Under the pieces are notes generated by a model. The model was not told the origin of the DNA and searched no databases. It worked only from the letters and a program-made list of their open reading frames with translations. This document shows, piece by piece, positions 15,137 through 36,895 of a stretch of DNA of 64,000 nucleotides (positions are counted from its first letter, which is position 1; each line of letters begins with the position of its first letter). Both the position numbers and the translations under genes were made by a program. Origin of the DNA: Candidatus Krumholzibacteriia bacterium (GTDB taxonomy: Bacteria > Krumholzibacteriota > Krumholzibacteriia > Krumholzibacteriales > Krumholzibacteriaceae); assembly GCA_963836185.1 (NCBI GenBank), contig CAWIIQ010000001.1, positions 1,152,001-1,216,000 on the forward strand, given 5' to 3'.

Positions 15137-15143
15137 GGCGGCA

Positions 15144-15172
15144 ATGCTAGCAGTAATCGGGATTCCGTGCAA
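15144..15172 (-). promoter_or_regulatory. Sigma70 promoter of the patatin gene, probably leaderless
   Basis: TTGCAC-N17-TAGCAT ends 7 nt before ATG 15136; no SD sequence. Confidence 0.5.
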
Positions 15173-15196: not shown

Positions 15197-15919
15197 TCAG
15201 ATGAACTTTTCCCTCTTCTGAAGATTGTACAGTCCCCAGAGGATAGCGATAATGCTTCCAACAGCGAGTATGATCCGGTTCTGGTATACGATCCCGGACC
15301 AGACGGCTTCAGTCATCTGGTCCGGCACCCTGAAAGGATTGAGGAAGAGGTTCCACTTGCTCTTCGAGAGGGACTCGGTGGCTATCCAGAACGCCATGCC
15401 GATGACGACCATTACAACCGCCGTCCCGTTACCGTTCCTTACGATCGTCGAGAACATGAATGAAAGGGCTCCGAGGAAGAAGATCGGGAACATCAGCTGG
15501 TAGACCATCTCGAGGATCGGCACCGATGCGAATACGACCGAGCTCAGGGCGGCGAGGACCACGAGAAGCACGAACTCGATCAGCCAGATAAGGGCCATCC
15601 TGGAGAGCCAGACCTTGTACCTGTAGTCGGGGATCCCGAAGAGTATCTCTATCATCCGTGAATCGACATCGTTCTGTATCCCGAAGGCTGTGGGGTAGAA
15701 GATCAGCAGGATTCCGGGGAAGAGGAGGATGTCAAAGACGTCATGAATGCCCGGATTGTTGTCGGAAGAGAAGAACGAGATCGCTCCCGCTGCGAGGAAG
15801 AAGATGAACGCGGCGAGCAGGAAGTATACGAACCTGTTGGCGAAGACGATCTTCAGGTTATACGAGGCTATCTTCCTCGCCGAAAAGAAAAGATTGCGTG
15901 CACGGTCAAACCTGCGCAT
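15197..15919 (-). CDS. ABC-2-type permease (about 6 TM)
   Basis: Six hydrophobic helices; DVDSRMIEILFGIP resembles the ABC-2 coupling region; start overlaps the upstream fusion gene. Confidence 0.75.
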   Translation of the reverse strand: MRRFDRARNLFFSARKIASYNLKIVFANRFVYFLLAAFIFFLAAGAISFFSSDNNPGIHDVFDILLFPGILLIFYPTAFGIQNDVDSRMIEILFGIPDYRYKVWLSRMALIWLIEFVLLVVLAALSSVVFASVPILEMVYQLMFPIFFLGALSFMFSTIVRNGNGTAVVMVVIGMAFWIATESLSKSKWNLFLNPFRVPDQMTEAVWSGIVYQNRIILAVGSIIAILWGLYNLQKREKFI

Positions 15920-18900
15920 CAGCTTCACCTCCCGCAGCTTCCTCTATCGCTGTCCTTGCTCCGAGTATGTCGCTTCCGGATGACCTGAGCAGCCAGAGGT
16001 AGGCATCCTCGAGTGTCGGCCTCGCCTCATGCGCGTCAGGAACGGGGCTCGCGTCTGCGAGGCACCTGACCTTGATCATCTCTCCGTCTCGCATGTGATG
16101 GACTACGACATGCTCTTTTCTGATCCTCTCGAAATCTCCCGGCGGCACGCTGAAGGTCCATACCTTCCCGGCCGCCGTGGCGGTCATCTTCGTCGGTTCA
16201 TCGAGATAGAGGAGCTGGCCTCTGTTGAGCACGGCCACGCGATTGCATGAGCTGTAGATATCCTCGATGATATGCGTCGAGAAGATGACGACCCTTTCCC
16301 TGCTCAGTTCGACGAGAAGGTTGCGGAACCTGATCCTCTCACGCGGGTCGAGGCCCGCTGTCGGCTCGTCGACCACGAGGATCCTCGGGAGGTGGAGAAG
16401 GATCTGCGCGATTCCGACCCGCTGTTTCATCCCGCCCGAGAATGCGCCGATCTTTCTTTCGGCATGTTCCTCTATATGCACAGCTTCGAGGACGTAGTCG
16501 ACCATCTCACGGCGTTTCTTCTCGTCGCCGAGCCCCTTGAGTATTGCCTGGTAGTCGAGAAACTCCCTTGCTGTCATGTTCTCGTACGTCCCGAATTCCT
16601 GCGGCAGGTAACCGATCAGCCCCTGCAGCTCCTCGCGTTTCTTAGACGTGTCGATCCCGTTTATGTAGACCTTTCCATACGACTGGTCGAGGATCCCGCA
16701 GATAACCCGCATCAGTGTCGTCTTGCCCGCTCCGTTCGGGCCGAGGAGGCCGAACATCCCGCTCCCGATCTCGAGTGAGACGCGATCGAGGGCCTTGAAC
16801 TGCTGCTTGCGCTTTCCAATCAGGGGGATCATCAGCACGAGTCGGTAAAGGGCCCGGCGTATCCCGGCGAACCTGCCCTCGACCCTCGCGATGTTTATCT
16901 TCTTCCTGTGCAGCCTGCGGGAGGTCGAGAAGATCGCCGCTGCGGGAAACCAGAGGATGGCGATAAATATCACAGCAGCGAGGTTGCCCCACTTCATGTA
17001 GAAGATGACGAGGTTCACGAGGGGGAAGAGCCAGATGAAACTCTTTGAAATAGTTCTCGCGATCCGGAAACGTGACAGCTGAGCGCTCCAGCATTTCCAT
17101 GCGTATATGAGGAAGAAGAAGAGGGCGTGTGAGAGGACGAAGGCCCAGAAGAATGAAGAGAGATAGAAATAGATGAAGTAGACCATGAATCCGAGAACGG
17201 GGAGCTGCCAGAGCAGATCGCCGGCATCGCTGGTTCGTATGTCTCCGCGGCGTTCCCTGATCCTGTTCCCCTTGTTCCATTCGCGCATGAACTTCGACGG
17301 CTGGTCATATATCTTGACGAGGTTGCGCACCGTGATCGTAATAGCGCTTTTGCGGTCGATGACCTTCTCAGACGCCTTTCTCAGGCTCGCCAGGATAAAC
17401 CAGGTGACAGCCGGGACGAGAAGTACGACCGTGGCGAAGAGGGCCGATCTCCAGATCAGTGATTCGATCTTTACCTGGACAAGCCAGATGCCGAGGACTC
17501 CCGCGACCAGCTGGCCGAGCTTGATCCTGATGTCCAGGCCCCGTATCCAGGCCATGGCCGAATCGAGGCCGGAGTAGACGACAGGTATGAAAACGAGGGT
17601 GAATATGGTGCTGACGGTCAGTCCGCCTATGACAGTGATCGCAAACGGCGCCCCGATCACCGAGATCTCTTCCTCCTTGCCCATCGCCAGTGGTATCATC
17701 GCAACGATCGTCGTGATCGCTGTTATGAGGATCGGTCTGACCCTCGCGTCGCCTGCCGTTATCAGGGCCCTCGTCGTGCGGTAGCCGCGGCGCTTCAGGA
17801 TCAGGGAGTAATCGATCAGTATGATCCCGTTGTTTACGACAACACCGAGGAGTATGAGGAACCCGGTCATCGTATAAGGATCGACGATAGATGTGCGTGT
17901 AAAGATCAGGAGCCAGAGGGATCCTATCGCGGCAAGAGGGATAGTGAACATCATCACAACGGGAGTCGTCAGCGACTCGAATACCGAAGCGAGTATCATG
18001 TAGATCAGGATGAAGGCAGCGAGGATGAGGAACTTGAACTCATCGATACCGGTGTCTTCCTCCACTATCTCCACGGCCATACCCTGCGGGACGACCAGTC
18101 CGGCGATCAGTTCCTCTATCTCGAGCTCGGCAGCTTCCTGCAGGTTTCTCGAGCCGTTTATCTCATCGATGAATGAATAGGTTATCTTGACCTGCTTTTC
18201 CTGGTTGACCCTGTTGATCGATGTCATCCCCCTTGTGTATACGACATCGGTTATGTCCTCAAGGTCGACGATGGCTCCAGAAGGGGATTCAAGTGACATC
18301 TCGCGAAGTTCATCAGCGCTGCGTTCCTCGACACCGTCACTTCTTATGATGATCTCGTATTCATCCGTCCCGTCCTTGAAGACCTGTCCGGTGGAATACT
18401 CCGGCTGGAAGGAGTTGAGCTCCATGCCTATCGAATTGAGGGTCAGGCCGTGCCAGCTAAGCATCGGCATATCGAACATCAGCTGTATCTCCGGGCTGCC
18501 GGGTGTCACGTCAAAATTCGCCGATGCCGTCGAGGCGAGATTATCGACATACTCGACGAGGTTGGAGGCGAACATCGACATCGCTTCGAAATCGTTTCCC
18601 TTTACTACGATACTCTTCTGCTGTCCTCCCAGCCCGAAGAATCCTCCCATCGCTCCGCCCATTCCGCCACCGCGTCTGCCCCTGTATCTTGTGCTGTTTG
18701 ACGGTTCCTCGAACGACACATCGCCGGTCCTGAAATCATGGAGCCGCTGCCTGGCGTCGCTTTTTACCTCGTGGATACTGCGGCCGTCGATTTCAGTGTA
18801 GTCTTCCTTCATAACGAGTGTGAGACGGGCATCCTCTTCATGAACCTCGACGAAAAGGTCCTCGGTCTCAGCGATCCCGGTAAGCCTTTCCTCCATATCG

Positions 18901-20630
18901 CCGACTGCGGCATCGGTCGATTCGAGTGTCGATCCGCGCTGCATGACGAGGAAGATATCGAACGATCCCGTTTCCTCGATCGTCGAGGAGCCGATACTGA
19001 GGCTGATACATAGTATGATGCTGATGAAAAAGATGATTATCGCGCCGACTGTCGTCCGGGCAGGGTATCTCATCCCCGTCTTGAGAAGGACGTGGTAGAT
19101 CTCCATCAGTCTTCCGCCCGATGACGAAGCGGGGGTGTAGTCGTGCCTCTTTCCCCTGGAAAGGAAGTAGTGGCTGACCATCGGCACGAGCAGGAGGGCT
19201 GCCACGAGCGATACGAGAAGGGTCGATACTATCGATACACCCACATGCTTCCCGAGACTCTGCACGATGATGTTCGACGAGAATACGAAGGGGAGGAATA
19301 CCGTGATCGTAGTCGCCGTCGCAGCTACGATCGAGCGCCATACCTCGCTCACCCCCTGGACCACCGCTGTGTCGGCGTTGAGGCCCTTCGAGACGAGCCT
19401 GTATATGTTCTCCAGGACGACGACGCCGTTGTCGAGAAGCATCCCGATGGCAAGCGCTATACCGATCAGGGTCAGGCTGTTTATCGATATACCAGCAGCG
19501 TAGAAGAAGTTCATCGCGATATAGACCGAGATAGGGATCGACAGGGCGATGACGAATACGAGCCGCAGGTTCCTCAGGAAGAACCAGAGGATCACTATGG
19601 CGAGCAGTCCGCCGATCACTGCGAGCCTTACTATCAGGCTGATATTGTCCCGGATCGATTCGGCTCCGTCGTACTGGACGACGAGCTCCATCTCCTGGCT
19701 CTTTATCTCTCTGTTGATCCTTTCGACTGCCTCCAGGGCCCGGTTGGAGACATCGATCATGTTGACCATCTGGTCCTTCTTGAGGGTCAGCGAGACGGAC
19801 TCCATCCCGTTTACCCTTGTGATGCTTTCCTGCTTCTTGACTCCGAAGTAGATCTCCGCTATGTCGCCGAGCAGTACGGGACCCTCGGGATGGACGACGA
19901 TATTCTCGAGGTCGGTCAGGTCGAGATACTCGGTCACAACGTTGACGAAATATTTCCGATCCTTCTCGACAGCGTGGCCGACGAATCTGTTCGAGGCTCC
20001 GTTGCTCGATATGAGTCTCGAGATCCTCGAAGGGGTAAGTCCGTACGCTTCGATAGCGGCGTCATCGAGGACGATGTCGACCGACTTTTCGCGCCCTCCG
20101 GAGACCTCGACGTCGGAGATACCCTCGATACTTTCAAACTTCTGCACGATCTCCCGGTCGACAACCTCACGGACGCGTTCAAGTCCGCCGGTTCCTCTGA
20201 CTTCGAGCCTCATCAGCTCGTTCGATATCGACTGGACATCGAACTGGAAGACCTGGACGATATACTCTTCGGGTATCGTCGACCTTATCTCGGTGATCTT
20301 CTCCTCGAGCTTGAGGTAGGCGTACTTGACGTCGATCCCTTGTTCATACTCGATTGTTATGCTGGCGCGTCCGCGGCTGACCCAGGATTCGATCTTCTCG
20401 ATTCCCTCGAGAGTGCCCGCGGCCTCCTCGATCGGGATGACCGCTTCCTTCTCGAGTTGGACAGGATCGACGGGCCGGGAGCGGACCATCACGACGAGGT
20501 AGGGAAATTCGATGTCTGGGATAAGCTCGACGGGGAGCCGTCTCTGCGAGATGACACCCAGCATCACAAGCCCGATGAAGAGCATGCTGATAAGGGTCTT
20601 GCGGCGGATTATGAAATTGCCAGCGCTCAT
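15906..20630 (-). CDS. RND permease fused to extra TM helices and a C-terminal ABC ATPase (1574 aa)
   Basis: RND motifs GMLLDNGVVVLENI, GVVVNNGIILID and RVRPILIT; ABC Walker A GPNGAGKT, signature FSGGMKQR, Walker B VVDEPT, H-loop STH; one continuous frame. Confidence 0.92.
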   Translation of the reverse strand: MSAGNFIIRRKTLISMLFIGLVMLGVISQRRLPVELIPDIEFPYLVVMVRSRPVDPVQLEKEAVIPIEEAAGTLEGIEKIESWVSRGRASITIEYEQGIDVKYAYLKLEEKITEIRSTIPEEYIVQVFQFDVQSISNELMRLEVRGTGGLERVREVVDREIVQKFESIEGISDVEVSGGREKSVDIVLDDAAIEAYGLTPSRISRLISSNGASNRFVGHAVEKDRKYFVNVVTEYLDLTDLENIVVHPEGPVLLGDIAEIYFGVKKQESITRVNGMESVSLTLKKDQMVNMIDVSNRALEAVERINREIKSQEMELVVQYDGAESIRDNISLIVRLAVIGGLLAIVILWFFLRNLRLVFVIALSIPISVYIAMNFFYAAGISINSLTLIGIALAIGMLLDNGVVVLENIYRLVSKGLNADTAVVQGVSEVWRSIVAATATTITVFLPFVFSSNIIVQSLGKHVGVSIVSTLLVSLVAALLLVPMVSHYFLSRGKRHDYTPASSSGGRLMEIYHVLLKTGMRYPARTTVGAIIIFFISIILCISLSIGSSTIEETGSFDIFLVMQRGSTLESTDAAVGDMEERLTGIAETEDLFVEVHEEDARLTLVMKEDYTEIDGRSIHEVKSDARQRLHDFRTGDVSFEEPSNSTRYRGRRGGGMGGAMGGFFGLGGQQKSIVVKGNDFEAMSMFASNLVEYVDNLASTASANFDVTPGSPEIQLMFDMPMLSWHGLTLNSIGMELNSFQPEYSTGQVFKDGTDEYEIIIRSDGVEERSADELREMSLESPSGAIVDLEDITDVVYTRGMTSINRVNQEKQVKITYSFIDEINGSRNLQEAAELEIEELIAGLVVPQGMAVEIVEEDTGIDEFKFLILAAFILIYMILASVFESLTTPVVMMFTIPLAAIGSLWLLIFTRTSIVDPYTMTGFLILLGVVVNNGIILIDYSLILKRRGYRTTRALITAGDARVRPILITAITTIVAMIPLAMGKEEEISVIGAPFAITVIGGLTVSTIFTLVFIPVVYSGLDSAMAWIRGLDIRIKLGQLVAGVLGIWLVQVKIESLIWRSALFATVVLLVPAVTWFILASLRKASEKVIDRKSAITITVRNLVKIYDQPSKFMREWNKGNRIRERRGDIRTSDAGDLLWQLPVLGFMVYFIYFYLSSFFWAFVLSHALFFFLIYAWKCWSAQLSRFRIARTISKSFIWLFPLVNLVIFYMKWGNLAAVIFIAILWFPAAAIFSTSRRLHRKKINIARVEGRFAGIRRALYRLVLMIPLIGKRKQQFKALDRVSLEIGSGMFGLLGPNGAGKTTLMRVICGILDQSYGKVYINGIDTSKKREELQGLIGYLPQEFGTYENMTAREFLDYQAILKGLGDEKKRREMVDYVLEAVHIEEHAERKIGAFSGGMKQRVGIAQILLHLPRILVVDEPTAGLDPRERIRFRNLLVELSRERVVIFSTHIIEDIYSSCNRVAVLNRGQLLYLDEPTKMTATAAGKVWTFSVPPGDFERIRKEHVVVHHMRDGEMIKVRCLADASPVPDAHEARPTLEDAYLWLLRSSGSDILGARTAIEEAAGGEADAQV

Positions 20631-23600
20631 CGGCTCCGATCCAGGACGGAATAGACACAGGGTATTACTATGAGTGTAAGTAAGGTCGATGTCACCAGGC
20701 CGCCGATAACCGCCAGCGCCATCGGTGAGCGGAGTGAAGCTCCTTCGCCGAATCCCAGGGTTAGGGGGAGGAGGGCGAGGATCGTCGTGGCGCTCGTCAT
20801 GATGATCGGCCGTATCCTGATCCTTCCTGCGGCTACTATCGCGTCAGCTTTCGCCATACCCTCGCGCCTGAACCTGTTGATCGCGTCGATAAGGATGATC
20901 GAATCGTTTACCGCGATGCCGACGAGCATGATGATGCCGATGTAGGCCATGATGCTCAGCGGACGGCCGAGGATGAAGAAGATCAGCACCGCGCCGACAC
21001 CGGCGAGCGGGATCGTCAGCAGGATCGCGAACGGATGGATCAGCGACTCGAACTGCGAGGCGAGGACCATGTAGACGAGTATTATCGACAGCAGAAGGGC
21101 GAACCGGAGATCGCGGAACTCCTCCTGCCTGCGGGCCTCCTCGCCTGTGATCGCGAGTCTGTAACCTTGAGGGACATCAAGTGACGCGAAGTTGCTGTTG
21201 ATCTCCCCGATGGCGTGGTCGAAGGGCCTGCCCTCGTTCTTGTGCGCCGAGACGATAGCTGCTCTCATCTGTCCGCGTCTGTTAATCTCGCGCGGGGCGG
21301 TGCCTCTTTCGAGGCGGGCAAGTTCATCGACCCGGAACTTTCTCCCCGATGAATCGATATATATCCTGTCGAGTTCCCCGATGCTCACATCGGGAAGCAT
21401 CACCGTGATGTCTGTTTTTTCTCCGCCACGGTCCCATTCTCCGGCGCTTCGTCCGGTGAGCCGGGACTCGAGCGTCCCGGTGACCTCGCCGAGGCTGACC
21501 TGGAGCATCCCCGCCCTGAGGCGGTCGACTACGACATTTATCTCTGGCCGTCCGTGCTCAAGCGACGTCTCGACATTATAGAGGTCGTCTATGCCGGCGA
21601 GCCGTCCCTTTACATCTTCAGCCATGCTCGTGAGAGTCTCGAGGTCGTCCCCCTTGATCTCGACGACGATCGGGGCGGATTCGGCCCCGAGGATCGAGCG
21701 AAGGGCTGTCTGGTCCTGTACGAGTCTTGACTCGACTCCCGGTATCGATGACAGCGTTGCTCCGAGGCCCGCCATGACCTGGCCCGAACTACGGCCGTGT
21801 CCTTCCGCAAAGCGGATCTTGACGACAGCTGTGTTCTCGTCCTGGAAGACAGAGGTCACGTCGCTGCCGATACCTGTTACCGGCCCGGCAGTGCTGAAAA
21901 GGGTCTCGATGTCGTCGCCGAAGGTGCCCCTGATCATCTCTTCGAGTCCCCTTACCGTGCCGTCTGTCCTCGTGAGGTCGGAACCTTCAGGCAGGGTGAG
22001 GTATATCGAGTACTCGTCGGCGTCGGAATCGGGAATGAACTCGCTGCCGACTATCGGCAGGAGGAGGGCCGCAATGACTACGAGCGCGACGGCTGCGATG
22101 ATGACCGTCCAGCGTTTCTCGAGGGCCTTTGCCAGGAGAGCGCCGTACCGTTCGAATTTCATTGGTTCGGCCGCAGCTGCCTTATCCTTCCCCTTCAGGA
22201 ACCTTGCGGCGAGCATCGGGATGATCAGTATCGCGACGGCGAGGGAGGAGAGAAGGGCGAATGCGACTGTCCATGCCTGATCCTTGAAGAGTTCTCCCGC
22301 GGCGCCGTGGAGGTATACTATCGGGAGGAATACGACGATCGTCGTTATCGTCGATGCCGTGATCGCGCCGCCGACCTGCGCCGTACCGGAGGCCGCTGCC
22401 TCCCTGACGCTCATCCCCGATTCGATATTTCTTACGATATTCTCGACGACGACGATGGCATTGTCGACGAGCATCCCCGCTCCGAGGGCGAGCCCCCCGA
22501 GTGTCATTATATTGAGCGACAGCCCCTTGAAGTACATCAGGTTGAAGGTCGCTACTATCGAGACAGGTATCGAGATGCTGATGATCGCCGTGGTACCTAT
22601 CCTTCTGAGGAATACGAAGAGTATCAGTATCGCGAGAAAGATCCCGATGAGCGCGGTCTGCCTGACCTCGCCTATCGAGGCGTTGATGAACTGCCCCTGA
22701 TCCTGGATGACGACGATCTCGTATCCGGGGAGGGCTTTCTCGATACGGTCGAGGGCGACGGCCAGATTCTCGCTCGCCTCAACCGTGTTGAATCTCATCT
22801 CCTTGTATATCGAAAGTCCGAGGGCCCTCGTGCCGTTGAGCCTGACGATGTTCTCCGGCTCCCTGTTGCGCAGCGAGACGTCGGCAACGTCATGGAGGTA
22901 TACAGGCGCCTTCTCGGTCGAGCTTTCAGCCTGTTGCCCAGTGCCGGATGAGAGCTGCTGGCCCTCGGCCGGTTCTTTCCAGGCGAGGATGATCTGCCTG
23001 ATATCCTCGATCGTCTCCATCTCCGAGACGCCCTTGATCAGGTACGATATCCCCATCTCGGTGACGGTGCCGCCGGAAGCCTCGACATTGTAATTCTGTA
23101 TCTCGGCCGCGATGGCATCGACGGTCAGGCCGTACGCTTCGAGCATGTACGAATCTGTGAGTACGATCACTTCCTTCGTCTCGCCGCCCGATATCTCGAC
23201 ACCTGCGATACCCTCGATACGCACCAGCTCGTTACGGATGTAGTTCTCCGCAATCCTGCGAGGGCCGTCCATGTCGGTCACTTCCGGATTGACCAGGGCT
23301 ACCGTCATCACGGGATCGGAGTTTGCGTCGTGCTGGGTTATCGTCATCTCGAGGTCGGAGTCACCCTGCCCGAAGTCGGCCGCGGCCTTCTGCAGATTGA
23401 GGAAGGCCTCGTCCATGTCCATGTCCCAGCCGTACTCGACCGTGATCCTCGCAGCACCGACTCTTATCACGGAGGATACCTCCGTAACGCCCTTCTGCGT
23501 GAAGATCATGTTCTCCATCTGATCGACGTACTGCTTCTCCATCTCCTCGGGAGGGCGCTCGCCCGCCTCGACTTCGATGAAGAGGCGCGGGTTGTTCAGG

Positions 23601-23719
23601 TCGGGGAAGAGGTCGATACCGAGTCGCTGGAACGATATCCAGCCGAGCAGGAACACCCCGAGGACGATCATCGTCACCGTGACCGGATGGTTGACGGAAA
23701 AGTCCGAAATCTTCCTCAT
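20627..23719 (-). CDS. RND (AcrB/AcrD/AcrF family) permease
   Basis: GMLVDNAIVVVENI, QFESLIHP and RIRPIIMT motifs; 1030 aa; start and stop overlap neighbours. Confidence 0.95.
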   Translation of the reverse strand: MRKISDFSVNHPVTVTMIVLGVFLLGWISFQRLGIDLFPDLNNPRLFIEVEAGERPPEEMEKQYVDQMENMIFTQKGVTEVSSVIRVGAARITVEYGWDMDMDEAFLNLQKAAADFGQGDSDLEMTITQHDANSDPVMTVALVNPEVTDMDGPRRIAENYIRNELVRIEGIAGVEISGGETKEVIVLTDSYMLEAYGLTVDAIAAEIQNYNVEASGGTVTEMGISYLIKGVSEMETIEDIRQIILAWKEPAEGQQLSSGTGQQAESSTEKAPVYLHDVADVSLRNREPENIVRLNGTRALGLSIYKEMRFNTVEASENLAVALDRIEKALPGYEIVVIQDQGQFINASIGEVRQTALIGIFLAILILFVFLRRIGTTAIISISIPVSIVATFNLMYFKGLSLNIMTLGGLALGAGMLVDNAIVVVENIVRNIESGMSVREAAASGTAQVGGAITASTITTIVVFLPIVYLHGAAGELFKDQAWTVAFALLSSLAVAILIIPMLAARFLKGKDKAAAAEPMKFERYGALLAKALEKRWTVIIAAVALVVIAALLLPIVGSEFIPDSDADEYSIYLTLPEGSDLTRTDGTVRGLEEMIRGTFGDDIETLFSTAGPVTGIGSDVTSVFQDENTAVVKIRFAEGHGRSSGQVMAGLGATLSSIPGVESRLVQDQTALRSILGAESAPIVVEIKGDDLETLTSMAEDVKGRLAGIDDLYNVETSLEHGRPEINVVVDRLRAGMLQVSLGEVTGTLESRLTGRSAGEWDRGGEKTDITVMLPDVSIGELDRIYIDSSGRKFRVDELARLERGTAPREINRRGQMRAAIVSAHKNEGRPFDHAIGEINSNFASLDVPQGYRLAITGEEARRQEEFRDLRFALLLSIILVYMVLASQFESLIHPFAILLTIPLAGVGAVLIFFILGRPLSIMAYIGIIMLVGIAVNDSIILIDAINRFRREGMAKADAIVAAGRIRIRPIIMTSATTILALLPLTLGFGEGASLRSPMALAVIGGLVTSTLLTLIVIPCVYSVLDRSR

Positions 23720-24768
23720 TACCTCACGACCTTTACCTTTGACCTGTTCCTCAGTGTCTCGAATCCTCTCACTACGAGCCGGTCATTGACATCGAGCCCG
23801 TCGATCACCTCGACCCAGCCGGGGTTCTCGAGGCCCGTCGTTATGATCCGCTCCTGCGCGGCGCCCTTCTGCACGATAAATACGGTCTTGCCGCGCTGCT
23901 TGATCTGTATGACATCCTTCGGGATTACGATCGCTGAGTCGCTCCTGGCGACGATGATCTCCGCCTTGACGAACATGCCCGGCCTGATCATCAGTTCCGG
24001 ATTGTCGACCTCGATCATCGCCTTGAACGATCTCGAGGCGGGGTCGAGGGCGGGGGAGACCTGTGTGACCCTGCCCGACAGGGTGTCGTCGGGAAGTGTG
24101 TAGTTCATTATGCGGACGTACTGGTCGGCGCCTGCACGGCCGAGTTCTTTGCCCGGGAGGCTGACCTCGAGCTGAAGCTTCGTGTACTCCTTCAGGCCGA
24201 GCAGCTCGACTCCGACTCCAACCTCGATACCCTTCGAGTAGTAAGGTAGGCTCGTGATGATGCCGTCGAAGGGGGCGGTGATGTTGAGCTTGGCGATACT
24301 GATCAGGGCATTGTCGTAGTTGTACTTCGCGTCTATGTAGTAACGCTCGGCAGCGGTGAGATCGGTACGGGTTATCCCGCCCTTGTCATACAGCGACTTC
24401 TGCTGCTCGAAATCAAGTTTCGCCGATTCAAGTGTGAGCTTGTGGGCGTCGACCCTGATATTGTTTACCTGTTCCTGGTCGACGAGGCGGATGATCCTCG
24501 TCCCTTTCCTGACGATATCGCCCAGGGCGAATGGCCTGCCCGTCTCAGGGTTGTCCTGGAGGTTGTACTCGCCGCCCGTCTCCGCGGTTATCGTCACTTC
24601 CATCGAGGCGTTGACCGTTCCGGTCGCAGTGACGAACTCTTCGATAGGCCCGAGGACCATCTCTTCGACCGAGACGGGGACCGCGACCTCGACGTCCACC
24701 CCATCTTCTCCGCTGTCGCAGGAGGCGAACACGGAAAGGACGATCAATAACAGTGTTATTCTCTTCAC
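23719..24768 (-). CDS. RND periplasmic adaptor (membrane fusion) lipoprotein
   Basis: Lipobox VFAS-C; ITAPFDGII, SPALDPASR and RPGMFV motifs; GTG start. Confidence 0.93.
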   Translation of the reverse strand: MKRITLLLIVLSVFASCDSGEDGVDVEVAVPVSVEEMVLGPIEEFVTATGTVNASMEVTITAETGGEYNLQDNPETGRPFALGDIVRKGTRIIRLVDQEQVNNIRVDAHKLTLESAKLDFEQQKSLYDKGGITRTDLTAAERYYIDAKYNYDNALISIAKLNITAPFDGIITSLPYYSKGIEVGVGVELLGLKEYTKLQLEVSLPGKELGRAGADQYVRIMNYTLPDDTLSGRVTQVSPALDPASRSFKAMIEVDNPELMIRPGMFVKAEIIVARSDSAIVIPKDVIQIKQRGKTVFIVQKGAAQERIITTGLENPGWVEVIDGLDVNDRLVVRGFETLRNRSKVKVVR

Positions 24769-24771
24769 TTC

Positions 24772-26271
24772 TTACTCCTCTGTCAATTCAGCGGTAGAGA
24801 CAGTGACCACCGGCTGGTCGTTCTCGAAATCCCACAATGATTTTATCTTCAGGTCCAGCAGCTGTAGTTTGTAATCGATAAGCGACTGTACCTCGCTGAG
24901 CCTTGCGTTCGACAGTGACTGCCTGTACTGGCCGAGGTCCTTGCTCGTCAGGTCGCCGTTCTGGTATTTCTCGAGGTTGATCTCGTACGTCTTCTCTGCG
25001 CTCTCGACCTGTCTCCGGGCCAGATCGATCTCGAGGACGAGGTTGTCGAGCCGCCTGCACGATTCGCGGACCTCCATCTTTATCCGGTATTTCTGCTCAT
25101 CAAGACTAAGCTTGGTGCTCTCCAGGTCGAGCTCACTCGCGAGGATCGTGTTCTTCTTCTGTCCCCAGTCCCATATCGGGATGTCGAAGGCAACGCTGAC
25201 GAACTGCTCGTCGACGCGGGTCTCGTAGATATTCTCGAAATTTGAATTTGTCCCGGATGATCCCCACGAGAGGGCGAGGTTCCCCTTGAACTCGTTCGTC
25301 GCCCCGGCTCGGATAACGTTGTCGTAGGCACTGGCGATAGAGATCTCATGTTCCCGGATCTGCATCCTGTACTGGAGGCCGTGCTTCTCGGCGAACTCCA
25401 TGTCGATGCCGACCGGAGTGAAGCCGATATCTGTATCTATGTCGATATCATCCTCGATAGGGAGGCCGATGAGGTACTTGAACCGATCGACGGCGTTGGC
25501 GAGCGCAACGACGGTGCTGTTATAGCTCGATTCGCTCGAGAGCATCGTAGTCTCAGCCTGTGTGAGATCGTCGAGCTTTCCGATCCCCGCGTCGTACTTG
25601 TTCTTCATGACCCGGTAGTTCTCTCGGTCCGTCTCCATCGCGTCGCGGTTGATCTCGAGACGCATCTTCGTGGCGTAGAGACTGTAGAAGCTGTCCATCA
25701 CCGTCTGTTCGAGGTCGAGCTGTGCGATCGCTAGCCGGAGCAGGTTCGACTCGAAATTCAGCTCGAGCGACCTGAGGTCCATTCTGATCTGGTTGTACGT
25801 AAAGAGGGGCTGGTCGAACTGGAGATAAAGGGCGTTTCGGTAAGTCTCCTCGGACTGGTCGTTGATCTCGCTGTATGAATCCTTCCAGGAGAGGCGGTCA
25901 TTGAGCGAGAGTGTGCCGCCTGTCCACTTGATCGGCTGTTCAATTACCAGGAGTCCGGCGATATCGTACGATTCATAACGGTACCAGGTGGAGAAGAACT
26001 CGTCGAACTGGTTCGTGTTCCTGTACGAGATATCACCCAGCCTGAACCTGAACTGGGTCTTAAGGCTCGCTTCCCGTGCCTTCAGCCTCGCATGGCTCGA
26101 CTCGACCCCTAGCCGCGTGTGCCTGATGTTCGGGCTGTTCTCCATCGCTATTGAGAGGGCCTCGTCGAGTGACAGGATGTGCTGGGCCCGCGCTCCGGGC
26201 GGCGCGGCAGCCAGGAGCAGCACGGCGAGCATTAATATGCCCGCTCCCCTGGTAAACGGTCTCGATCTCAT
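24772..26271 (-). CDS. TolC-family outer membrane protein
   Basis: LSLDEALSIAMENSP, QPLF, IPIWDWG, KYQNG patterns; two-repeat helical/barrel organisation; start MRSRP at 26271. Confidence 0.9.
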   Translation of the reverse strand: MRSRPFTRGAGILMLAVLLLAAAPPGARAQHILSLDEALSIAMENSPNIRHTRLGVESSHARLKAREASLKTQFRFRLGDISYRNTNQFDEFFSTWYRYESYDIAGLLVIEQPIKWTGGTLSLNDRLSWKDSYSEINDQSEETYRNALYLQFDQPLFTYNQIRMDLRSLELNFESNLLRLAIAQLDLEQTVMDSFYSLYATKMRLEINRDAMETDRENYRVMKNKYDAGIGKLDDLTQAETTMLSSESSYNSTVVALANAVDRFKYLIGLPIEDDIDIDTDIGFTPVGIDMEFAEKHGLQYRMQIREHEISIASAYDNVIRAGATNEFKGNLALSWGSSGTNSNFENIYETRVDEQFVSVAFDIPIWDWGQKKNTILASELDLESTKLSLDEQKYRIKMEVRESCRRLDNLVLEIDLARRQVESAEKTYEINLEKYQNGDLTSKDLGQYRQSLSNARLSEVQSLIDYKLQLLDLKIKSLWDFENDQPVVTVSTAELTEE

Positions 26272-26284
26272 CTGGATTTCCTTT

Positions 26285-29200
26285 CTAGCGTAATACCCAT
26301 TTGACCGCGTCGGCGATGACCTTCTCGGCATCCGATTCGTTGGTCAGCTCTATTTTAGCCTCTCCCTGGGAGATGTAGTATGAGCCGAGATAGTTCCAGC
26401 CGTCGTCGGCGCCGTTGAGGTCGAGTTCGGTCTCCTCGATCCCGTCATCGTGATATATGAGGAAGTGGAGTTTTCCGTAATTCTCCTCGTGATCCCCGCC
26501 CCTGTGTCTCCTCCAGGGGGCTGTGATTTTGGCTGCATGATAGTAGATGTCGTAATGCCCGCTCTTTTTCATGTCAGTGGTGAACGCGGCTTTGAGATCC
26601 CCTTTCCCGGCCGATATGAAATGGGCCGAACGGATCTGGTTCCCGTAGAACTTCGAGTCGATCGTCGGCTGCCATTTATTTGTCTCGCCACCCCAGAAAC
26701 GCATCCCGACATATTTCACATCTTCCTCGCGCTCGCCGCGGGGGATAAGTCTCTTCAGGAGGCTCCTCGAGGTGCCCGATGAGAAGGTGAATCCGGGGTC
26801 CTCGTTGTCGACCACTGTCTCTCCCTGCTCGACGAGGCTTACCGGCCTGTCGCTGATCCTCTCACCGTCGAACGGAACGGCCTTCTTCTTCTCATCGAGT
26901 TTCTTGGGCAGGTCGATGTCGAGGAGCACAGGCAGGTTGCGCGAGACGAGGGTGTTGATACTCAGCTTCGAGGGCTGGAAAGTCAGTACGAATCCCAGTT
27001 CTTTCGTCTCTCCGGCCTTTATCGGTACGTATTTGCTGTAATCCTCTCCCATCGTCATATTCGCGGTCATCATCCTCCGCATCCTGCCGCCCCTGCCTTC
27101 TCTGACGTTCAGGTCCATCTGCTGGAAAGTGAACTGGATAAGGCCGTCCGTATCCTCGCTGTTGGTCACGCTAAACCGGACCTGGAACTTCTCGCGCTCC
27201 CCGTCCAGAAAGCTGTAAATCTCGACCGACGACATCAGGAAGCCTGGAATGGCGATGTCGTCGTACCATCCCGCCGCTATCGACGGAAGGTCTATTCCGA
27301 GTCTTTCACTGAGGGCGGAGACAAGTTCATCTCCGGGCACGTTGCCGTGCTTGTGTTTGTCGAAGAGCTCGGCGAGCAGTGCATCGATATCTTCGCGGTC
27401 TGCGGCGCTTTCCATCATCCGGAAGAGGAAGCTTCCCTTCGATTTCAGGGCGTAGTGGGACATCTTCCTGTATTCCGGATCGAGAACGATGTCGCGCAGG
27501 CTCATCTTGGAAAGCTTGTCGTTTACCCTCTCCTCGATGGTCATCCCGTATCTCATCCTTGTCCAGGTCGAGGTGTTGTCCTCGAGTCTCGACGCGTACC
27601 ATGATTCGAGCGCCATGCCGAGCCACGGCATCTCCTTCGAATCTATCCCGTTGCGGAAGGTAAGCATATTGGGGAAGACGTTGAACGAAGGGGTCCTGCC
27701 GAACGGATCGTCCGAGCCCCAGTCCATCTGTCCGAAACTGCCAGTGAGGGTGCCGTTGACGAAGGCGGCCAGCCAGCCCGCCTGCGTCTCCACCTCGGAG
27801 ACATCCTCGTTGCTTCTGTCGTTCATCCTCTCCGTCCGGCGTTTCATGCGCCTGAAGTCGGTGGTCCTCCCCGTGATGCCTCTTTCCTGTATGAATACCA
27901 TCTCGGGCTGGACGTTCTCCTGGCTTACCGACCAGGCGTGGTGGAAGATGAAGAAATGAACCGGCACCTCGACCAGTGAGAATCTCGGGAAGGGGTACTC
28001 GAGATTGAGGTTGTTCTCGTAGGTCTGTCTGAGGTCCCTGATCATCGACTCCAGGGTATCCCCGACCTCGGTGAAAGACTCCGACCAGTAGTCATTTCCC
28101 CGGCGGCAGTAGATGTTGTACTCGGTCGAGTCGACCACTGTCGTCTGCCGCTCGAAGTCGGCGATGACAAGTGAGATCGCGGGGAGGGGGAATTCAGGCC
28201 TGAAGCTGAAGTTGCCCGGTGAGCCGGATGTCGATGCACCCTGGGAGACTGCCGTCAGCTGCGATGAAGTAGTGACGTCGAGTGAGAAATCGATGAAATC
28301 GTGTCTCCGGTCGAGCGGCCTCGAGGCGACGAAGCCCGGCCCGGCTGCCGGGTACCATATCGTTTCCGGGGTGAGCAGGACGCAGGACGGATGTATGTAC
28401 GAGAATCTCCTGCCCAGGTTGAAGAGCAGGGTCCAGTTGGGGGAATTGAGAGTCTCGATGTCTATGTCTGTGTATAGAGCGTCCTCGTTTATGACGCCTC
28501 TCCACCTGATCTCGAATGAATCCTCCGCGCCCGGTGCGAGGGGAGCCTGCGGCAGGACGGTCAGTACCTGTTCATCACGCTCATACTTAAGGGCCCCCGA
28601 CGATCCGGTAAGTTCCGTAACGGCCAGCCCCGGATTGAGGCTGAATATATAGGCGGAAAGGGGCGCTTCCGTATCGTTGCGCACAGTGATCTTCGCTGCC
28701 GCGTCGATCAGTCCGCCTTCATGCATGAGGTCGATCGCGCATGAGAGAGGTGTAGCCACCGGTCTCTCCGCGGCAGTCTCGGCCGCCGCCAGAACCCGCT
28801 CGCGCTGGTGCTCGGCGGTTCCATCTTTTCCCGTATAGACGACGATCAGCACGATGGCAAGCGCCGCGCAGGCAAGACCGAAGATACGGGCGAAGCCTGT
28901 CATGACCCTCGACTGGGGGAGCCTGCGGATCATGACGATAGTCAGGGCGATGAACGACAGCCCGAAGAGGAGGTAGATCGACCGCTGCACGAGCATGTGC
29001 GTGATATCGGCAAAGCCGGTGAACTGCGAGTAGGTCATGGGTACATTGAAGCCGATGTAATCGTAGACGTTGTGGATCTTCGGCCCGAGGTAGAAGAGTG
29101 TCATCCCTATATATCCGAGAAGCACTATGAATGTCACAGCCTGGTTGCGGATCGTGACCATCAGCAGGAAGGCGAATCCGAGGATGAAGATCAGTGTCGG

Positions 29201-29665
29201 GAAGCTTATAATGACGGGATATATGAGGTAGGCGATCCCGGCGAATGTCGTATCGGCAAAGAATACGTTGAATACGAAGCCGATGAGCAGGATCACGACA
29301 TTGAGAAGAAGGAACATCGCCAAGATCCCGACCGTCTTGCCGATGACGTAATCTGTGTTCGTCATCGAGCGCATGTAGACGACCTCGGTCGTGTCGAGCT
29401 TCTTGTCACGCTTGAGGAAGTCGGAGGCGAGGAAGACCGCGATGATCGCCTGCGCCATGTTGAGCACCAGGATGTTCATGTAGGGTATCGTCGTCGGTAA
29501 CCCCTGGAAGCCCCAGGGAGCGTGGGTGACGTTTGAGAGGGTACCGAAGTCGTAGAAACCTATGCCCGCAACGGAGAGGATCGAAAAGATCCGAAAGAAC
29601 CAGCTCCTCCACAGTGTCTTCGCCTCGAATTTCGCCACTGTGAGGATGTTGTAGACAGATATCAT
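26285..29665 (-). CDS. ABC-2-type permease fused to an M1-aminopeptidase-like ectodomain lacking HEXXH and a C-terminal golvesin/xanthan-lyase-like beta-sandwich
   Basis: About 7 N-terminal TMs; FSLNPGLAV, WYP and YPFPRFSLVEVP M1-like segments; VVDNEDPGF...GWNYLGSY...VIADAVKW C-terminus. Confidence 0.78.
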   Translation of the reverse strand: MISVYNILTVAKFEAKTLWRSWFFRIFSILSVAGIGFYDFGTLSNVTHAPWGFQGLPTTIPYMNILVLNMAQAIIAVFLASDFLKRDKKLDTTEVVYMRSMTNTDYVIGKTVGILAMFLLLNVVILLIGFVFNVFFADTTFAGIAYLIYPVIISFPTLIFILGFAFLLMVTIRNQAVTFIVLLGYIGMTLFYLGPKIHNVYDYIGFNVPMTYSQFTGFADITHMLVQRSIYLLFGLSFIALTIVMIRRLPQSRVMTGFARIFGLACAALAIVLIVVYTGKDGTAEHQRERVLAAAETAAERPVATPLSCAIDLMHEGGLIDAAAKITVRNDTEAPLSAYIFSLNPGLAVTELTGSSGALKYERDEQVLTVLPQAPLAPGAEDSFEIRWRGVINEDALYTDIDIETLNSPNWTLLFNLGRRFSYIHPSCVLLTPETIWYPAAGPGFVASRPLDRRHDFIDFSLDVTTSSQLTAVSQGASTSGSPGNFSFRPEFPLPAISLVIADFERQTTVVDSTEYNIYCRRGNDYWSESFTEVGDTLESMIRDLRQTYENNLNLEYPFPRFSLVEVPVHFFIFHHAWSVSQENVQPEMVFIQERGITGRTTDFRRMKRRTERMNDRSNEDVSEVETQAGWLAAFVNGTLTGSFGQMDWGSDDPFGRTPSFNVFPNMLTFRNGIDSKEMPWLGMALESWYASRLEDNTSTWTRMRYGMTIEERVNDKLSKMSLRDIVLDPEYRKMSHYALKSKGSFLFRMMESAADREDIDALLAELFDKHKHGNVPGDELVSALSERLGIDLPSIAAGWYDDIAIPGFLMSSVEIYSFLDGEREKFQVRFSVTNSEDTDGLIQFTFQQMDLNVREGRGGRMRRMMTANMTMGEDYSKYVPIKAGETKELGFVLTFQPSKLSINTLVSRNLPVLLDIDLPKKLDEKKKAVPFDGERISDRPVSLVEQGETVVDNEDPGFTFSSGTSRSLLKRLIPRGEREEDVKYVGMRFWGGETNKWQPTIDSKFYGNQIRSAHFISAGKGDLKAAFTTDMKKSGHYDIYYHAAKITAPWRRHRGGDHEENYGKLHFLIYHDDGIEETELDLNGADDGWNYLGSYYISQGEAKIELTNESDAEKVIADAVKWVLR

Positions 29666-29717
29666 CTCGTCAGCCTTTCATCGGCGGGTGGGGTTAGACG
29701 GCCCGGCCGCTTGTATC

Positions 29718-30599
29718 TCAGTTTTCCGACTGGTTCTCCATGAAATATACGTAGGCATGCTCAAGGTTCGGCTCGACCTCTTCGCCCGGCCACCTGCCCG
29801 TGTTGTCGGCTACGACATGGACCTCCCAGCCGTCGTCGGCAGGAACAGTCGATATCACGGGGAATGTAGTCTTGATCTCTTCGAGTTCGGTGTCGAGCGC
29901 GCGGATCTTCCATGCCTTGCCGCGGGCCATGTCGACCAGCCCGTCCGGCGAGCCGCGGAAGACGACGCTGCCCCGGTCGAGCAGGGCCATGTTGTGGCAT
30001 GAGCTCGATATGTCGCCCACTATATGTGTAGAGAGGATTATCGCGATGTCCTTCTGGCCCATGTCGGCCAGCAGGTTCCTGAACCTGATACGCTCCTCGG
30101 GATCGAGGCCGGTTGTCGGCTCGTCGACGACTATGATCTTCGGATCGCCGATAAGCGCCTGGGCGATCCCTAGCCTGCGCTTCATCCCGCCGGAGAGCTT
30201 GTTGGCCAGCCTGTCACGCACGTCGTAGAGGCCGACCTGCTCGAGCATCTCGCCTACTTCCTTCGTCCTTTTCTTTTTGTCCTTGAGACCGGCAAGGCGC
30301 GCAACGTAGTCGAGGAACTCCCACGTCGTGAGCTTTGAGAAGAACCTGAATTCCTGGGGGAGGTATCCGAGCATCGATCTTATCTCGCGCCGGTTCCTCT
30401 GCAGGTCGAAATCGTTTACTCTTACGGTGCCGCCTGTCGGCTTCATCAGTGTGACCAGGATACGCATCAGGGTCGTCTTGCCCGCGCCATTCGGCCCGAG
30501 CAGGCCGAACATCCCGCTCCCTATATCGAGGTCCACACCAGACAGGGCAGTCGTACCGCCCTTGTAGGTCTTGCTCAGTCCTTCGACCGATATTTTCAT
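29718..30599 (-). CDS. ABC transporter ATP-binding protein
   Basis: GPNGAGKT, LSGGMKRR, VVDEPT and STH motifs; GGAGG RBS. Confidence 0.96.
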   Translation of the reverse strand: MKISVEGLSKTYKGGTTALSGVDLDIGSGMFGLLGPNGAGKTTLMRILVTLMKPTGGTVRVNDFDLQRNRREIRSMLGYLPQEFRFFSKLTTWEFLDYVARLAGLKDKKKRTKEVGEMLEQVGLYDVRDRLANKLSGGMKRRLGIAQALIGDPKIIVVDEPTTGLDPEERIRFRNLLADMGQKDIAIILSTHIVGDISSSCHNMALLDRGSVVFRGSPDGLVDMARGKAWKIRALDTELEEIKTTFPVISTVPADDGWEVHVVADNTGRWPGEEVEPNLEHAYVYFMENQSEN

Positions 30600-30631
30600 G
30601 CTCGCCCTCCCGGCATACTGGATATATCTCG

Positions 30632-30658
30632 TACGCCTATGGCCCGTATATAGTTTCA
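30632..30658 (-). promoter_or_regulatory. ECF-type promoter TGAAAC-N17-CGTA driving the RND/ABC operon
   Basis: Minus strand TGAAACtatatacgggccataggCGTA, 32 nt before the ATG; same boxes and spacing as 60748-60774. Confidence 0.7.
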
Positions 30659-35499: not shown

Positions 35500-36895
35500 A
35501 TGTACGACGTTAAAAGGAACAGTCTAAGGAGAAGGATCAAGAGGAAGATCCAGCGGATGCCTCCCGGCCTCGTCGTGGCTTTGAGTTTCATCCTTACTGC
35601 GGTCATCGGAGCGGTCCTTCTTATGCTCCCCGTCGCTTCTTCCAGTGAGCCTGTGAACGGCCTCGATGCATTCTTTACCGCTGTTTCAGCCGTCTGTGTC
35701 ACAGGGCTTGCCGTGATCGATATAGGAACGAAACTGACACTCTTCGGGAAGATAGTCGTTCTGACGCTTATTCAGGTAGGCGGGCTCGGTATCATGACCT
35801 TCTCCGTCTTCCTCTTCCTCTTCATAGGCAAGAGCCTTGGAACGAAGGAGAGATGGATCATCAACGAGTCGTTTCTGCCGACCCCTATCGTCGATATAAA
35901 ACAGCTGATAAAAATGATATTCGCCTTCACCTTCACGGTGGAGGCTGTTGGAGCGATTTTGCTATTCTTCGTCTGGAGAAGAGAGATGCCGCTGCGAGCC
36001 GGCTATCTTTTCGAGTGTTTTTCACGCCGTCTCATCTTTCTGCAACGCCGGATTCTCTTTCTTTTCCACGAGTTTCATGCAGTATCAGGGAAACATCCTT
36101 CTCAATGTCACGGTGATGAGCTTGATAATACTCGGCGGGCTGGGATTTCCCGTTGTCCACGAGTTCCTGTGGAGGTTCAATCACAGGAAGGACCACAGGC
36201 GCTACCATTTCTCTCTCCACACGAAACTGGTGCTGTGGACTACCGCCGTTCTCATAATAGGCGGTGCGCTTCTGATATTCTTTATAGAGAGAGGGCCCGA
36301 ATGGGAGGTCCTTTCATTTAAGAACAGAGCGCTCGTCTCTCTCTTCCAGTCGGTGACAGCCAGGACCGCCGGTTTCAACACGGTCGAGATCTCCAAGCTC
36401 GAGCCCGCTACGCTCTTTATAATCATCATGCTGATGTTCATCGGAGCGAGCCCCGGTTCTACAGGGGGAGGGATAAAGACGACGACTCTGGCGATATTCG
36501 CTTCGATTATCAGGAGCCGGGTCTCTGGCCGCCAGTCGGTGGGTGTGTTCAGGTTCACGATTCCGGAAGACAAGATCGGGAAGGCGCTCTCCGTCCTCGC
36601 GATGGCGGTCGTCACCGTATCCGTGGGATTGATCCTGCTTCTTGTCTTCCACATGGATATCGCGCACGTGACGGCCAACTTTTTCCTGTCGGCGCTGTTT
36701 GAGACTGTATCGGCTTTCGCTACGGTCGGTCTCTCTATGGGAGTGACGGCGTCGCTTAATCCGGCTGGAAAGATAGTTGTGATCATATTGATGTTCCTCG
36801 GAAGGGTCGGCCTGTTGACAATGGCCTATGTCGTCACCAGCAGGCTGCGGCCGATAACTTACAGGTACGCTGATGGAAGAATCATGATAGGATGA
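35500..36895 (+). CDS. ktrB: TrkH/KtrB potassium uptake membrane protein, frameshift at ~35993
   Basis: SAVCVTGL, IQVGGLG, SSFCNAGF, TARTAGF, GASPGSTGGGIK and SAFATVGLS across ORFs 35500-36321 and 35948-36895. Confidence 0.9.

Follow-up and report, generated by a model that had tools for sequence, protein, structure and literature searches.

A 64,000-nt stretch of DNA from a Candidatus Krumholzibacteriia bacterium (assembly GCA_963836185.1, contig CAWIIQ010000001.1, positions 1,152,001 to 1,216,000 of the forward strand; here called the window) carries, at positions 15197 to 30599, seven minus-strand open reading frames (ORFs) that encode parts of an ATP-binding cassette (ABC) transporter and of a resistance-nodulation-division (RND) pump. 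An earlier reading of the letters alone (the original prediction) had described a tightly coupled minus-strand operon of seven genes with no gap above 52 nt, and all ORFs and gaps were found as it described them, the intergenic distances being 52, 13, 3, -1, -4, and -23 nt. Its placement of the operon also held, except for the upper bound of 30658, which precedes the first ATG by 59 nt. The TolC-family gene starts at an ATG with a ribosome binding site, giving 499 amino acids (aa); the longer start reported by the ORF caller, at 26331, overlaps the preceding gene. Promoter-like sites were no commoner than in shuffled sequences (5 versus 8.1). The closest named relatives are labeled Candidatus Krumholzibacteriota, and the genome holds one top-scoring copy of each of the seven components. 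The features are listed below, with nucleotide-binding domain abbreviated NBD, membrane fusion protein MFP, and transmembrane helix TM.

29718..30599, minus strand: NBD1, free ABC ATPase of the DrrA/GldA-like ABC-2 type, 293 aa (Pfam ABC_tran)
26285..29665, minus strand: giant ABC-2 permease, 1126 aa; 7 TM, then an M1-aminopeptidase fold without zinc site, a beta domain, and Golvesin_C
26297..26683, minus strand: Golvesin_C module, giant permease aa 995-1123 (Pfam PF25275)
24772..26271, minus strand: TolC-family outer-membrane channel, 499 aa (Pfam OEP, two stretches)
23719..24768, minus strand: MFP, RND-type periplasmic adaptor, 349 aa, likely a lipoprotein via Cys17 (HlyD_D23/HlyD_3, TIGR01730)
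20627..23719, minus strand: RND1 permease, 1030 aa, 12 TM (ACR_tran 4-1026)
15906..20630, minus strand: RND2::ABC fusion, 1574 aa, 18 predicted TM (ACR_tran 5-1020, ABC_tran 1282-1425)
16845..17555, minus strand: membrane tether of RND2::ABC, aa 1026-1262, of no known family (from alignment)
15197..15928, minus strand: small ABC-2-like permease, 243 aa, 6 TM (TM count, Pfam matches of homologs)

Both RND proteins carry a full-length ACR_tran domain and have 12-TM cores; with the RND-type adaptor and the TolC-family channel, they make up the parts list of an AcrB/MdtBC-type tripartite pump. The nearest solved relative of RND1 is MdtB (9LYQ, E = 2e-96), and the NCBIfam equivalog cutoffs for MdtB/MdtC were not reached (374 versus 1584; 398 versus 1774). 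The adaptor scored 174 bits against the TIGR01730 model for RND-type MFPs (cutoff, 94.9); its Cys17 was invariant (11/11), and a lipobox-like motif was present in 148/173, which makes lipidation at Cys17 likely. Pfam and NCBIfam matches bore out the gene identities given in the original prediction, with the two permeases recognized only weakly; the prediction had missed the zinc-less M1 fold and the Golvesin_C module that make up most of the giant permease. The Pfam scan that it proposed placed ACR_tran and ABC_tran on one 1574-aa chain. The RND::ABC-ATPase fusion was thereby upheld, and six extra helices that had gone unnoticed were found to follow the RND core, two ahead of the ATPase and four inserted into it.

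The fusion runs from the 12-TM RND core through a 2-TM hairpin, the first ATPase strand, and a 4-TM insert to the rest of the ATPase (NBD2). The tether includes this displaced strand and the A-loop aromatic residue of NBD2, Y1108, which was Tyr or Phe in 136/136 rows (conservation rows are full-length, de-duplicated ORFs; truncated ORFs were dropped). Counts of Lys and Arg gave a positive-inside pattern that fits 2 + 4 helices and a cytoplasmic ATPase. An AlphaFold2 (AF2) model of the last 549 aa had a mean predicted local distance difference test score (pLDDT) of 88.8 and a predicted TM score (pTM) of 0.78, and the modelled NBD2 aligned to whole ABC ATPases from model residue 70 to 72, before the insert (4YER: Z, 28.5; root mean square deviation, 3.1; 270 residues aligned). 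Since the alignment begins before the insert, the first strand completes the modelled NBD2 domain across the insertion. The Wzt gate helix presumably sits at the same place as the NBD2 insert. The tether had no Atlas match at ≥0.9, and the fold search barely probed it, since the ATPase filled its matches. A frameshift, read-through, or assembly artifact was considered as the source of the fusion and rejected: relatives from several phyla carry a single open frame of ~1550 to 1650 aa.

As predicted, the system has two NBDs, and both are intact in their catalytic motifs. Walker A, Walker B, Q-loop, signature, D-loop, and H-loop were kept in 137/137 rows of NBD1 and in 135 to 136 of 136 rows of NBD2. 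The Walker B Glu is E160 in NBD1 and E1422 in NBD2, and the two domains are 43% identical to each other. The best NCBIfam match of NBD1 was drrA, below the cutoff, and the best ATPase matches were of the drrA/gldA types. The nearest ATPase paralog in the genome (G000:C1:332782-335524; 43 to 44% identical to both NBDs) adjoins a permease of ~550 aa with two ABC-2-like transmembrane domains (TMDs) and no peptidase domain.

The giant permease has 7 TM (TMD, aa 1-285; AF2 pLDDT, 88.9; pTM, 0.87), and its remaining 830 aa are predicted to lie in the periplasm. In a Foldseek search, the ectodomain matched the M1 aminopeptidases IRAP and ERAP1 (E = 6e-18). The motif of an active M1 aminopeptidase, HExxH-x18-E, is missing: HExxH-x(17-19)-E was found in 0/152 locus copies and in 0/150 representatives, with a stray HExxH in 2 and 3 of them, respectively. 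Two alignments placed the lost zinc site differently, with no conserved His in either register; in one register, an Arg/Lys-rich helix replaces it and might suit an anionic ligand. Golvesin_C (PF25275) was present in 40/40 family members. It matches only the C-terminal tail of Paenibacillus xanthan lyase (PDB 6F2P, residues 921-1038 of the 1040-aa chain, or 942-1038 in one comparison), which explains the database label "xanthan lyase" on this protein. We rejected that identity, as the catalytic region of the lyase is unmatched. The accessible part of PMC11002231 does not identify the module as a known carbohydrate-binding module, and we therefore make no claim of carbohydrate binding.

Comparison with known permeases placed the giant permease among ABC-2 transporters. 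Neither permease matched an ABC-2 Pfam family itself; at E ≤ 0.05, PF12679 (ABC2_membrane_2) was matched in 24/40 giant permease homologs and PF12698 (ABC2_membrane_3) in 12/41 small permease homologs (best E = 3.6e-7). No FtsX or MacB Pfam match was found in 81 permease homologs, which gave ABC-2 matches instead. Six of 88 plasmid records with NBD1 homologs, chosen as likely informative, were opened. On four of them, the NBD1 homolog precedes a single chain of 1180 to 1200 aa with two ABC-2 TMDs and an M1 domain; of the other two, one has a broken chain and one, from Spirosoma, a split pair of small and big proteins. The Spirosoma locus (L204:6001-10554) encodes an ATPase, a 206-aa TMD protein, and a 1011-aa TMD/M1 protein with an intact HExxH, and no RND. 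HExxH was intact in 5/5 M1 domains examined from these plasmid systems, and no co-directional RND gene was adjacent in 6/6 loci. The giant permease itself had no match in plasmids. Two-gene systems with such an ABC-2 permease/M1 fusion (examples: WP_338395416.1, WP_052345947.1, and WP_284688055.1) are what we take to be TCDB 3.A.1.145.

The giant permease is colinear with the TMD2 + M1 portion of these fusions (HHalign probability, 99.8%; E = 7.6e-30; 743 columns), and its membrane domain prefers their TMD2 (96.9%) over their TMD1 (85.9%); together with the PF12679 matches, this marks it as an ABC-2 TMD. Like the fusions, it has a TMD followed by an M1 fold; unlike them, it does not hold both TMDs in one chain (7 TM versus ~12 to 13). 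What the giant permease lacks relative to a two-TMD chain is the first half, which suggests that the small permease takes the place of the missing TMD1 and that the two permeases form a heterodimer. The original prediction had proposed a heterodimeric ABC transporter, and the fusion proteins provide an independent argument for pairing of the two permeases. Profile comparison also gave a weak match of the small permease to the TMD of the giant permease across the coupling-helix region (E = 0.0018); no PDB sequence match was found for the small permease.

We scored co-occurrence of the giant permease and the RND::ABC tether by genome in 522 genomes from four groups. Both were present in 235 genomes, neither in 277, and only one in 10. 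By group, the counts were as follows: own phylum (n = 201), both 28, permease only 4, neither 169, with the fusion counted by reading the high-identity matches among 59; Prolixibacteraceae (n = 151), both 137, permease only 3, tether only 1, neither 10; the KSB1 phylum (n = 113), both 55, permease only 1, neither 57; and Calditrichota (n = 57), both 15, permease only 0, tether only 1, neither 41. Of the ten discordant cases, six are loci that meet the end of a contig, two are genomes with fragments of an RND1 ortholog, and the other two were not among the loci inspected. In G173, one of those with RND1-ortholog fragments, other genes follow the giant permease.

Gene order was conserved as well. 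The seven genes stood in the same order in 40 of the 80 adaptor-anchored loci inspected (the best 80 of 215); by coordinates, 39 more miss genes only at contig or flank ends, and one breaks after the adaptor. These loci span Krumholzibacteriota, KSB1, Calditrichota, Latescibacterota, Glassbacteria, and Bacteroidota. The order was kept in 60/60 picked Prolixibacteraceae loci, two of which are cut at NBD1 and two of which have frameshifts, and a divergent subfamily in the KSB1 phylum retains all seven genes. The system is rare in the Bacteroidota overall, with the small permease in 4/401. Distance matrices of all parts correlated at 0.85 to 0.97 (106 loci). Covariation between parts was uninformative at an effective sequence number (Neff) of ~54, where intraprotein signal was no higher than interprotein signal, and residual distance correlations were likewise uninformative. 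Two loci (L184 and L191) are rearranged, with NBD1, giant permease, TolC, MFP, and RND1 in one block and RND2::NBD2 and small permease in another.

Extra copies of the giant permease were present in 11 loci, 10 of them without a cognate ATPase gene and 1 in tandem before NBD1. For six of the ten orphans, the nearby ATPase is lptB or an unrelated ABC protein. In a quick tree, the orphans nest inside the main family on long branches, and they were seen only in genomes that also carry the main copy. This distribution would fit interchangeable subunits that share the remaining parts of the machine with the main copy. In this genus (L108-L112 and this genome), the orphan lies between kdsD and lpxL-lptC-lptB-rpoN, within a lipopolysaccharide synthesis and export cluster; other orphans (L113, L115-L117) lie elsewhere. 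The orphan of this genome (G000:C2:299857-303200; L020:7840-11207) is split into two ORFs, while the copies of relatives are whole.

The seven genes are co-inherited as a block, and we propose, at about an even level of belief, that they build a single tethered ABC + RND trans-envelope exporter that relays an amphipathic substrate. The giant permease with the free ATPase and the small permease with the RND2-fused ATPase would form a heterodimeric ABC-2 (type V) transporter, held by the six extra helices against an RND1/RND2 heterotrimer that would dock on the single adaptor and TolC. We infer the following transport steps. Driven by ATP, the ABC unit may lift an amphipathic substrate, such as a lipopeptide or lipid-linked molecule, out of the inner leaflet or the cytoplasm, or flip it; RND pumps have poor access to these sites. 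In the periplasm, the substrate would be bound and not cleaved by the M1 domain that lacks zinc. From the outer leaflet, it would pass to the tethered RND trimer, which would use the proton gradient to drive it through TolC. Orphan giant permeases could be swap-in specificity subunits. The reading of one exporter draws on the co-occurrence of giant permease and tether, the gene order, the argument from the ABC-2/M1 fusions, the orphan distribution, and the correlated distances, and also on the rearranged loci, which keep the small permease with RND2::NBD2 and the giant permease with NBD1. Cooperation of an ABC-2 transporter with an RND-superfamily protein has a precedent in the accessible part of PMC11539658.

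The ectodomain and the tether also bear on other roles for the ABC half. In a sensor-gated pump, the ABC unit would move little or nothing; the zinc-less domain would bind a peptide or a fragment of the envelope in the periplasm, and ATP turnover would switch the tethered RND pump or drive it mechanically. In its favor are the 830-aa predicted periplasmic domain of binding type, the membrane insert in the ATPase core, which offers a route for passing motion, and the fast evolution of the orphan paralogs, as is seen in receptors. We nevertheless consider this arrangement unlikely, since the ancestral ABC-2/M1 systems lack a co-directional RND in 6/6 loci, which argues that the ABC core had a function independent of any RND pump. 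Large periplasmic ligand-binding-type domains are used by importers too, and the ABC half might take up peptides caught by the dead peptidase domain, with only a spatial link to the RND pump. Such an importer or recycler is highly implausible, given that ABC-2/type V folds are mostly exporters, that the best ATPase matches are of the drrA/gldA types, and that one ATPase is covalently fused to an efflux subunit.

Several observations weigh against a single exporter. The original prediction had called for conservation of all seven genes and had named loss of ABC/RND co-occurrence as grounds for giving it up; co-inheritance was observed, and non-co-occurrence was seen clearly once. In locus L058 (genome G202), on a 253-kb contig, the free ATPase, giant permease, TolC, and MFP are kept, and no tether, RND1 ortholog, RND2, or small permease is present. 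The four operon genes are followed by a membrane-protein gene and then by unrelated genes; L057 and L064 carry a similar gene between MFP and RND1, which suggests that the deletion in G202 followed such an insertion. The loss of the RND half in G202 looks like a rare secondary loss. It could also mean that two homodimeric ABC units work independently, with two copies each of giant permease and NBD1 standing apart, perhaps with MFP-TolC, and two RND2 chains joining two copies each of NBD2 and small permease. In favor of such an arrangement, G202 keeps only the first four genes, the rearrangements split the operon between RND1 and RND2, and a heterodimeric TMD pair does not require two ATPase genes. 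The near-perfect co-occurrence in 522 genomes, the absence of a TMD1 counterpart from the giant permease, which matches just the latter half of a two-TMD chain, and the RND type of the single adaptor argue the other way, and we find independent transporters improbable. The genomes are related, so that the co-occurrence counts overstate independence; we claim no statistical test.

The proton relay is a second such point. The canonical relay, numbered by what we take to be the AcrB positions D407-D408-K940-R971-T978, is incomplete in both RND proteins: D407, R971, and T978 are kept, and the D408 and K940 equivalents are Asn (147/147 and 145/147 rows of RND1, respectively, and 136/136 rows of RND2). 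Compared with MdtB (9LYQ), both have DN in place of DD in TM4 and Asn in place of Lys in TM10, whereas the first Asp, the Glu, the Arg, and the Thr are retained; the conserved TM4 Asp is D419 in RND1 and D400 in RND2. An ATP-only machine, in which the RND trimer would be a passive scaffold or duct between the ABC unit and TolC, as suggested for MmpL7 with DrrABC, would account for the two Asn residues, and a scaffold role has been proposed for the relay-less MmpL7 in the part of PMC11539658 that could be consulted. The D407, E414, and R971 equivalents are, however, near-invariant (146 to 147 of 147 rows in RND1, 136/136 in RND2), and T978 is mostly kept (141/147 in RND1, 136/136 in RND2). The same D-N/N-N pattern also occurs in stand-alone RND proteins of this genome, so that the change is a trait of the subfamily. 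That control led us to reject a relay degenerate because ATP drives the pump as specific evidence, and an ATP-only machine seems rather improbable to us. The closest paralog of RND1 lies in one such locus (G000:C1:139623-147346), an MFP with a tandem RND pair that has no fused ATPase and shares the pattern, which indicates that the RND half descends from self-sufficient pumps.

Two further points concern the partner of the giant permease and the substrate. The match of the small permease to the ABC-2/M1 fusions was weak, and no better to TMD1 (E = 0.005) than to TMD2 (E = 0.003). A search of 360 flanking ORFs of 104 loci for conserved genes for a cargo or its biosynthesis gave lineage-bound neighbors only. 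With no conserved cargo gene across phyla, the substrate class proposed above is a guess.

RND pumps gather cargo from the periplasm or the outer leaflet, and another transporter is needed for the first membrane step. We compared the seven-gene system with machines that share some of its parts. In MdtABC-TolC, two paralogous RND proteins form a heterotrimer with one adaptor (PMC8277102, accessible part). The present system resembles it in its tandem RND genes behind one MFP, with TolC, and in the kinship of RND1 to MdtB, but differs in the altered relay, in the six helices and ATPase added to RND2, and in three further ABC genes that are always present. MacAB-TolC and type 1 secretion systems likewise combine ABC ATPase, adaptor, and TolC in one operon (same source), whereas the present system joins an RND-type adaptor and two RND proteins to ABC-2-like TMDs of 6 to 7 helices. 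The ABC-2/M1 fusion systems have an ATPase directly upstream that is 42 to 46% identical to NBD1, in addition to the colinear TMD2 + M1. Theirs, however, are two TMDs in one chain, an intact HExxH, one ATPase gene, and no co-directional RND or TolC. In the seven-gene system, by contrast, the TMDs lie on separate chains, the zinc site has been lost, the permease has gained a beta domain and Golvesin_C, and a second ATPase is fused to RND2.

DrrABC with MmpL7 is the closest working precedent. According to the accessible part of PMC11539658, export of one amphipathic cargo there requires both an RND-superfamily protein and a type V ABC transporter whose two TMDs differ; each drr gene is needed for export of phthiocerol dimycocerosate (PDIM), and MmpL7 is suggested to act as a scaffold. 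In contrast to the present system, these are separate proteins, DrrA is a homodimer, the MmpL protein is not an AcrB-type RND, MFP and TolC are absent, and cargo synthesis genes are adjacent (same source). The seven-gene system is a member of neither DrrABC-MmpL7 nor MdtABC-TolC. Tripartite pumps are described with one inner-membrane energizer, of the ABC, RND, or major facilitator superfamily (MFS) type, in the accessible part of PMC8277102, where no RND-ABC fusion was found. We found no description of the seven-gene system in the searchable literature, which covers few subscription journals, so that absence is not proven.

The system is real and highly conserved, an arrangement of known parts that lies outside the current classes of tripartite pump. 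New here are the colinearity of the giant permease with ABC-2/M1 TMD2 + M1 without a zinc site, an ATPase that is split and yet folds whole in the model, and the orphan giant permeases. Tentatively, and with some doubt, we suggest a new class of trans-envelope exporter, a covalently linked assembly in which an ATP-driven heterodimeric ABC unit and a proton-driven RND heterotrimer would act in series by way of one adaptor and TolC, with a pseudo-peptidase ectodomain as exchangeable substrate receptor and a membrane domain in the ATPase core as coupling element. Two energizers appear to be hard-wired to one channel, intact across at least 4 phyla and in ~90% of the sampled Prolixibacteraceae. 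With the fused version, the passage of cargo from ABC to RND that has long been inferred for DrrABC-MmpL7 becomes directly testable in a single complex that can be purified, and harmless cultured carriers exist, e.g., Sunxiuqinia rutila and S. dokdonensis (loci L091 and L098). The system also corrects the common "xanthan lyase" mislabel and yields a family of putative pseudo-peptidase receptors with ~1000 distant representatives (1017 at E ≤ 1e-30).

The neighbors of the operon vary among lineages. A patatin-POTRA-Omp85 (PlpD-like) gene lies 24 nt downstream (window positions 12941 to 15172, minus strand) and is kept only in close relatives (6 loci). Upstream, an acetate-CoA ligase-like gene with an N-terminal ATP-grasp domain (30789 to 33077, minus strand) is the neighbor in 13 close loci. 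In some Bacteroidales (L069, L081, L082, L095, L096, and L100), a cassette of GntR, ABC ATPase, and permease stands just upstream of the operon. Farther along the window, a TrkH-type potassium uptake gene (35500 to 36895, plus strand) is present as two overlapping ORFs, probably through a frameshift, upstream of a TrkA-like gene, both named by sequence inspection only.

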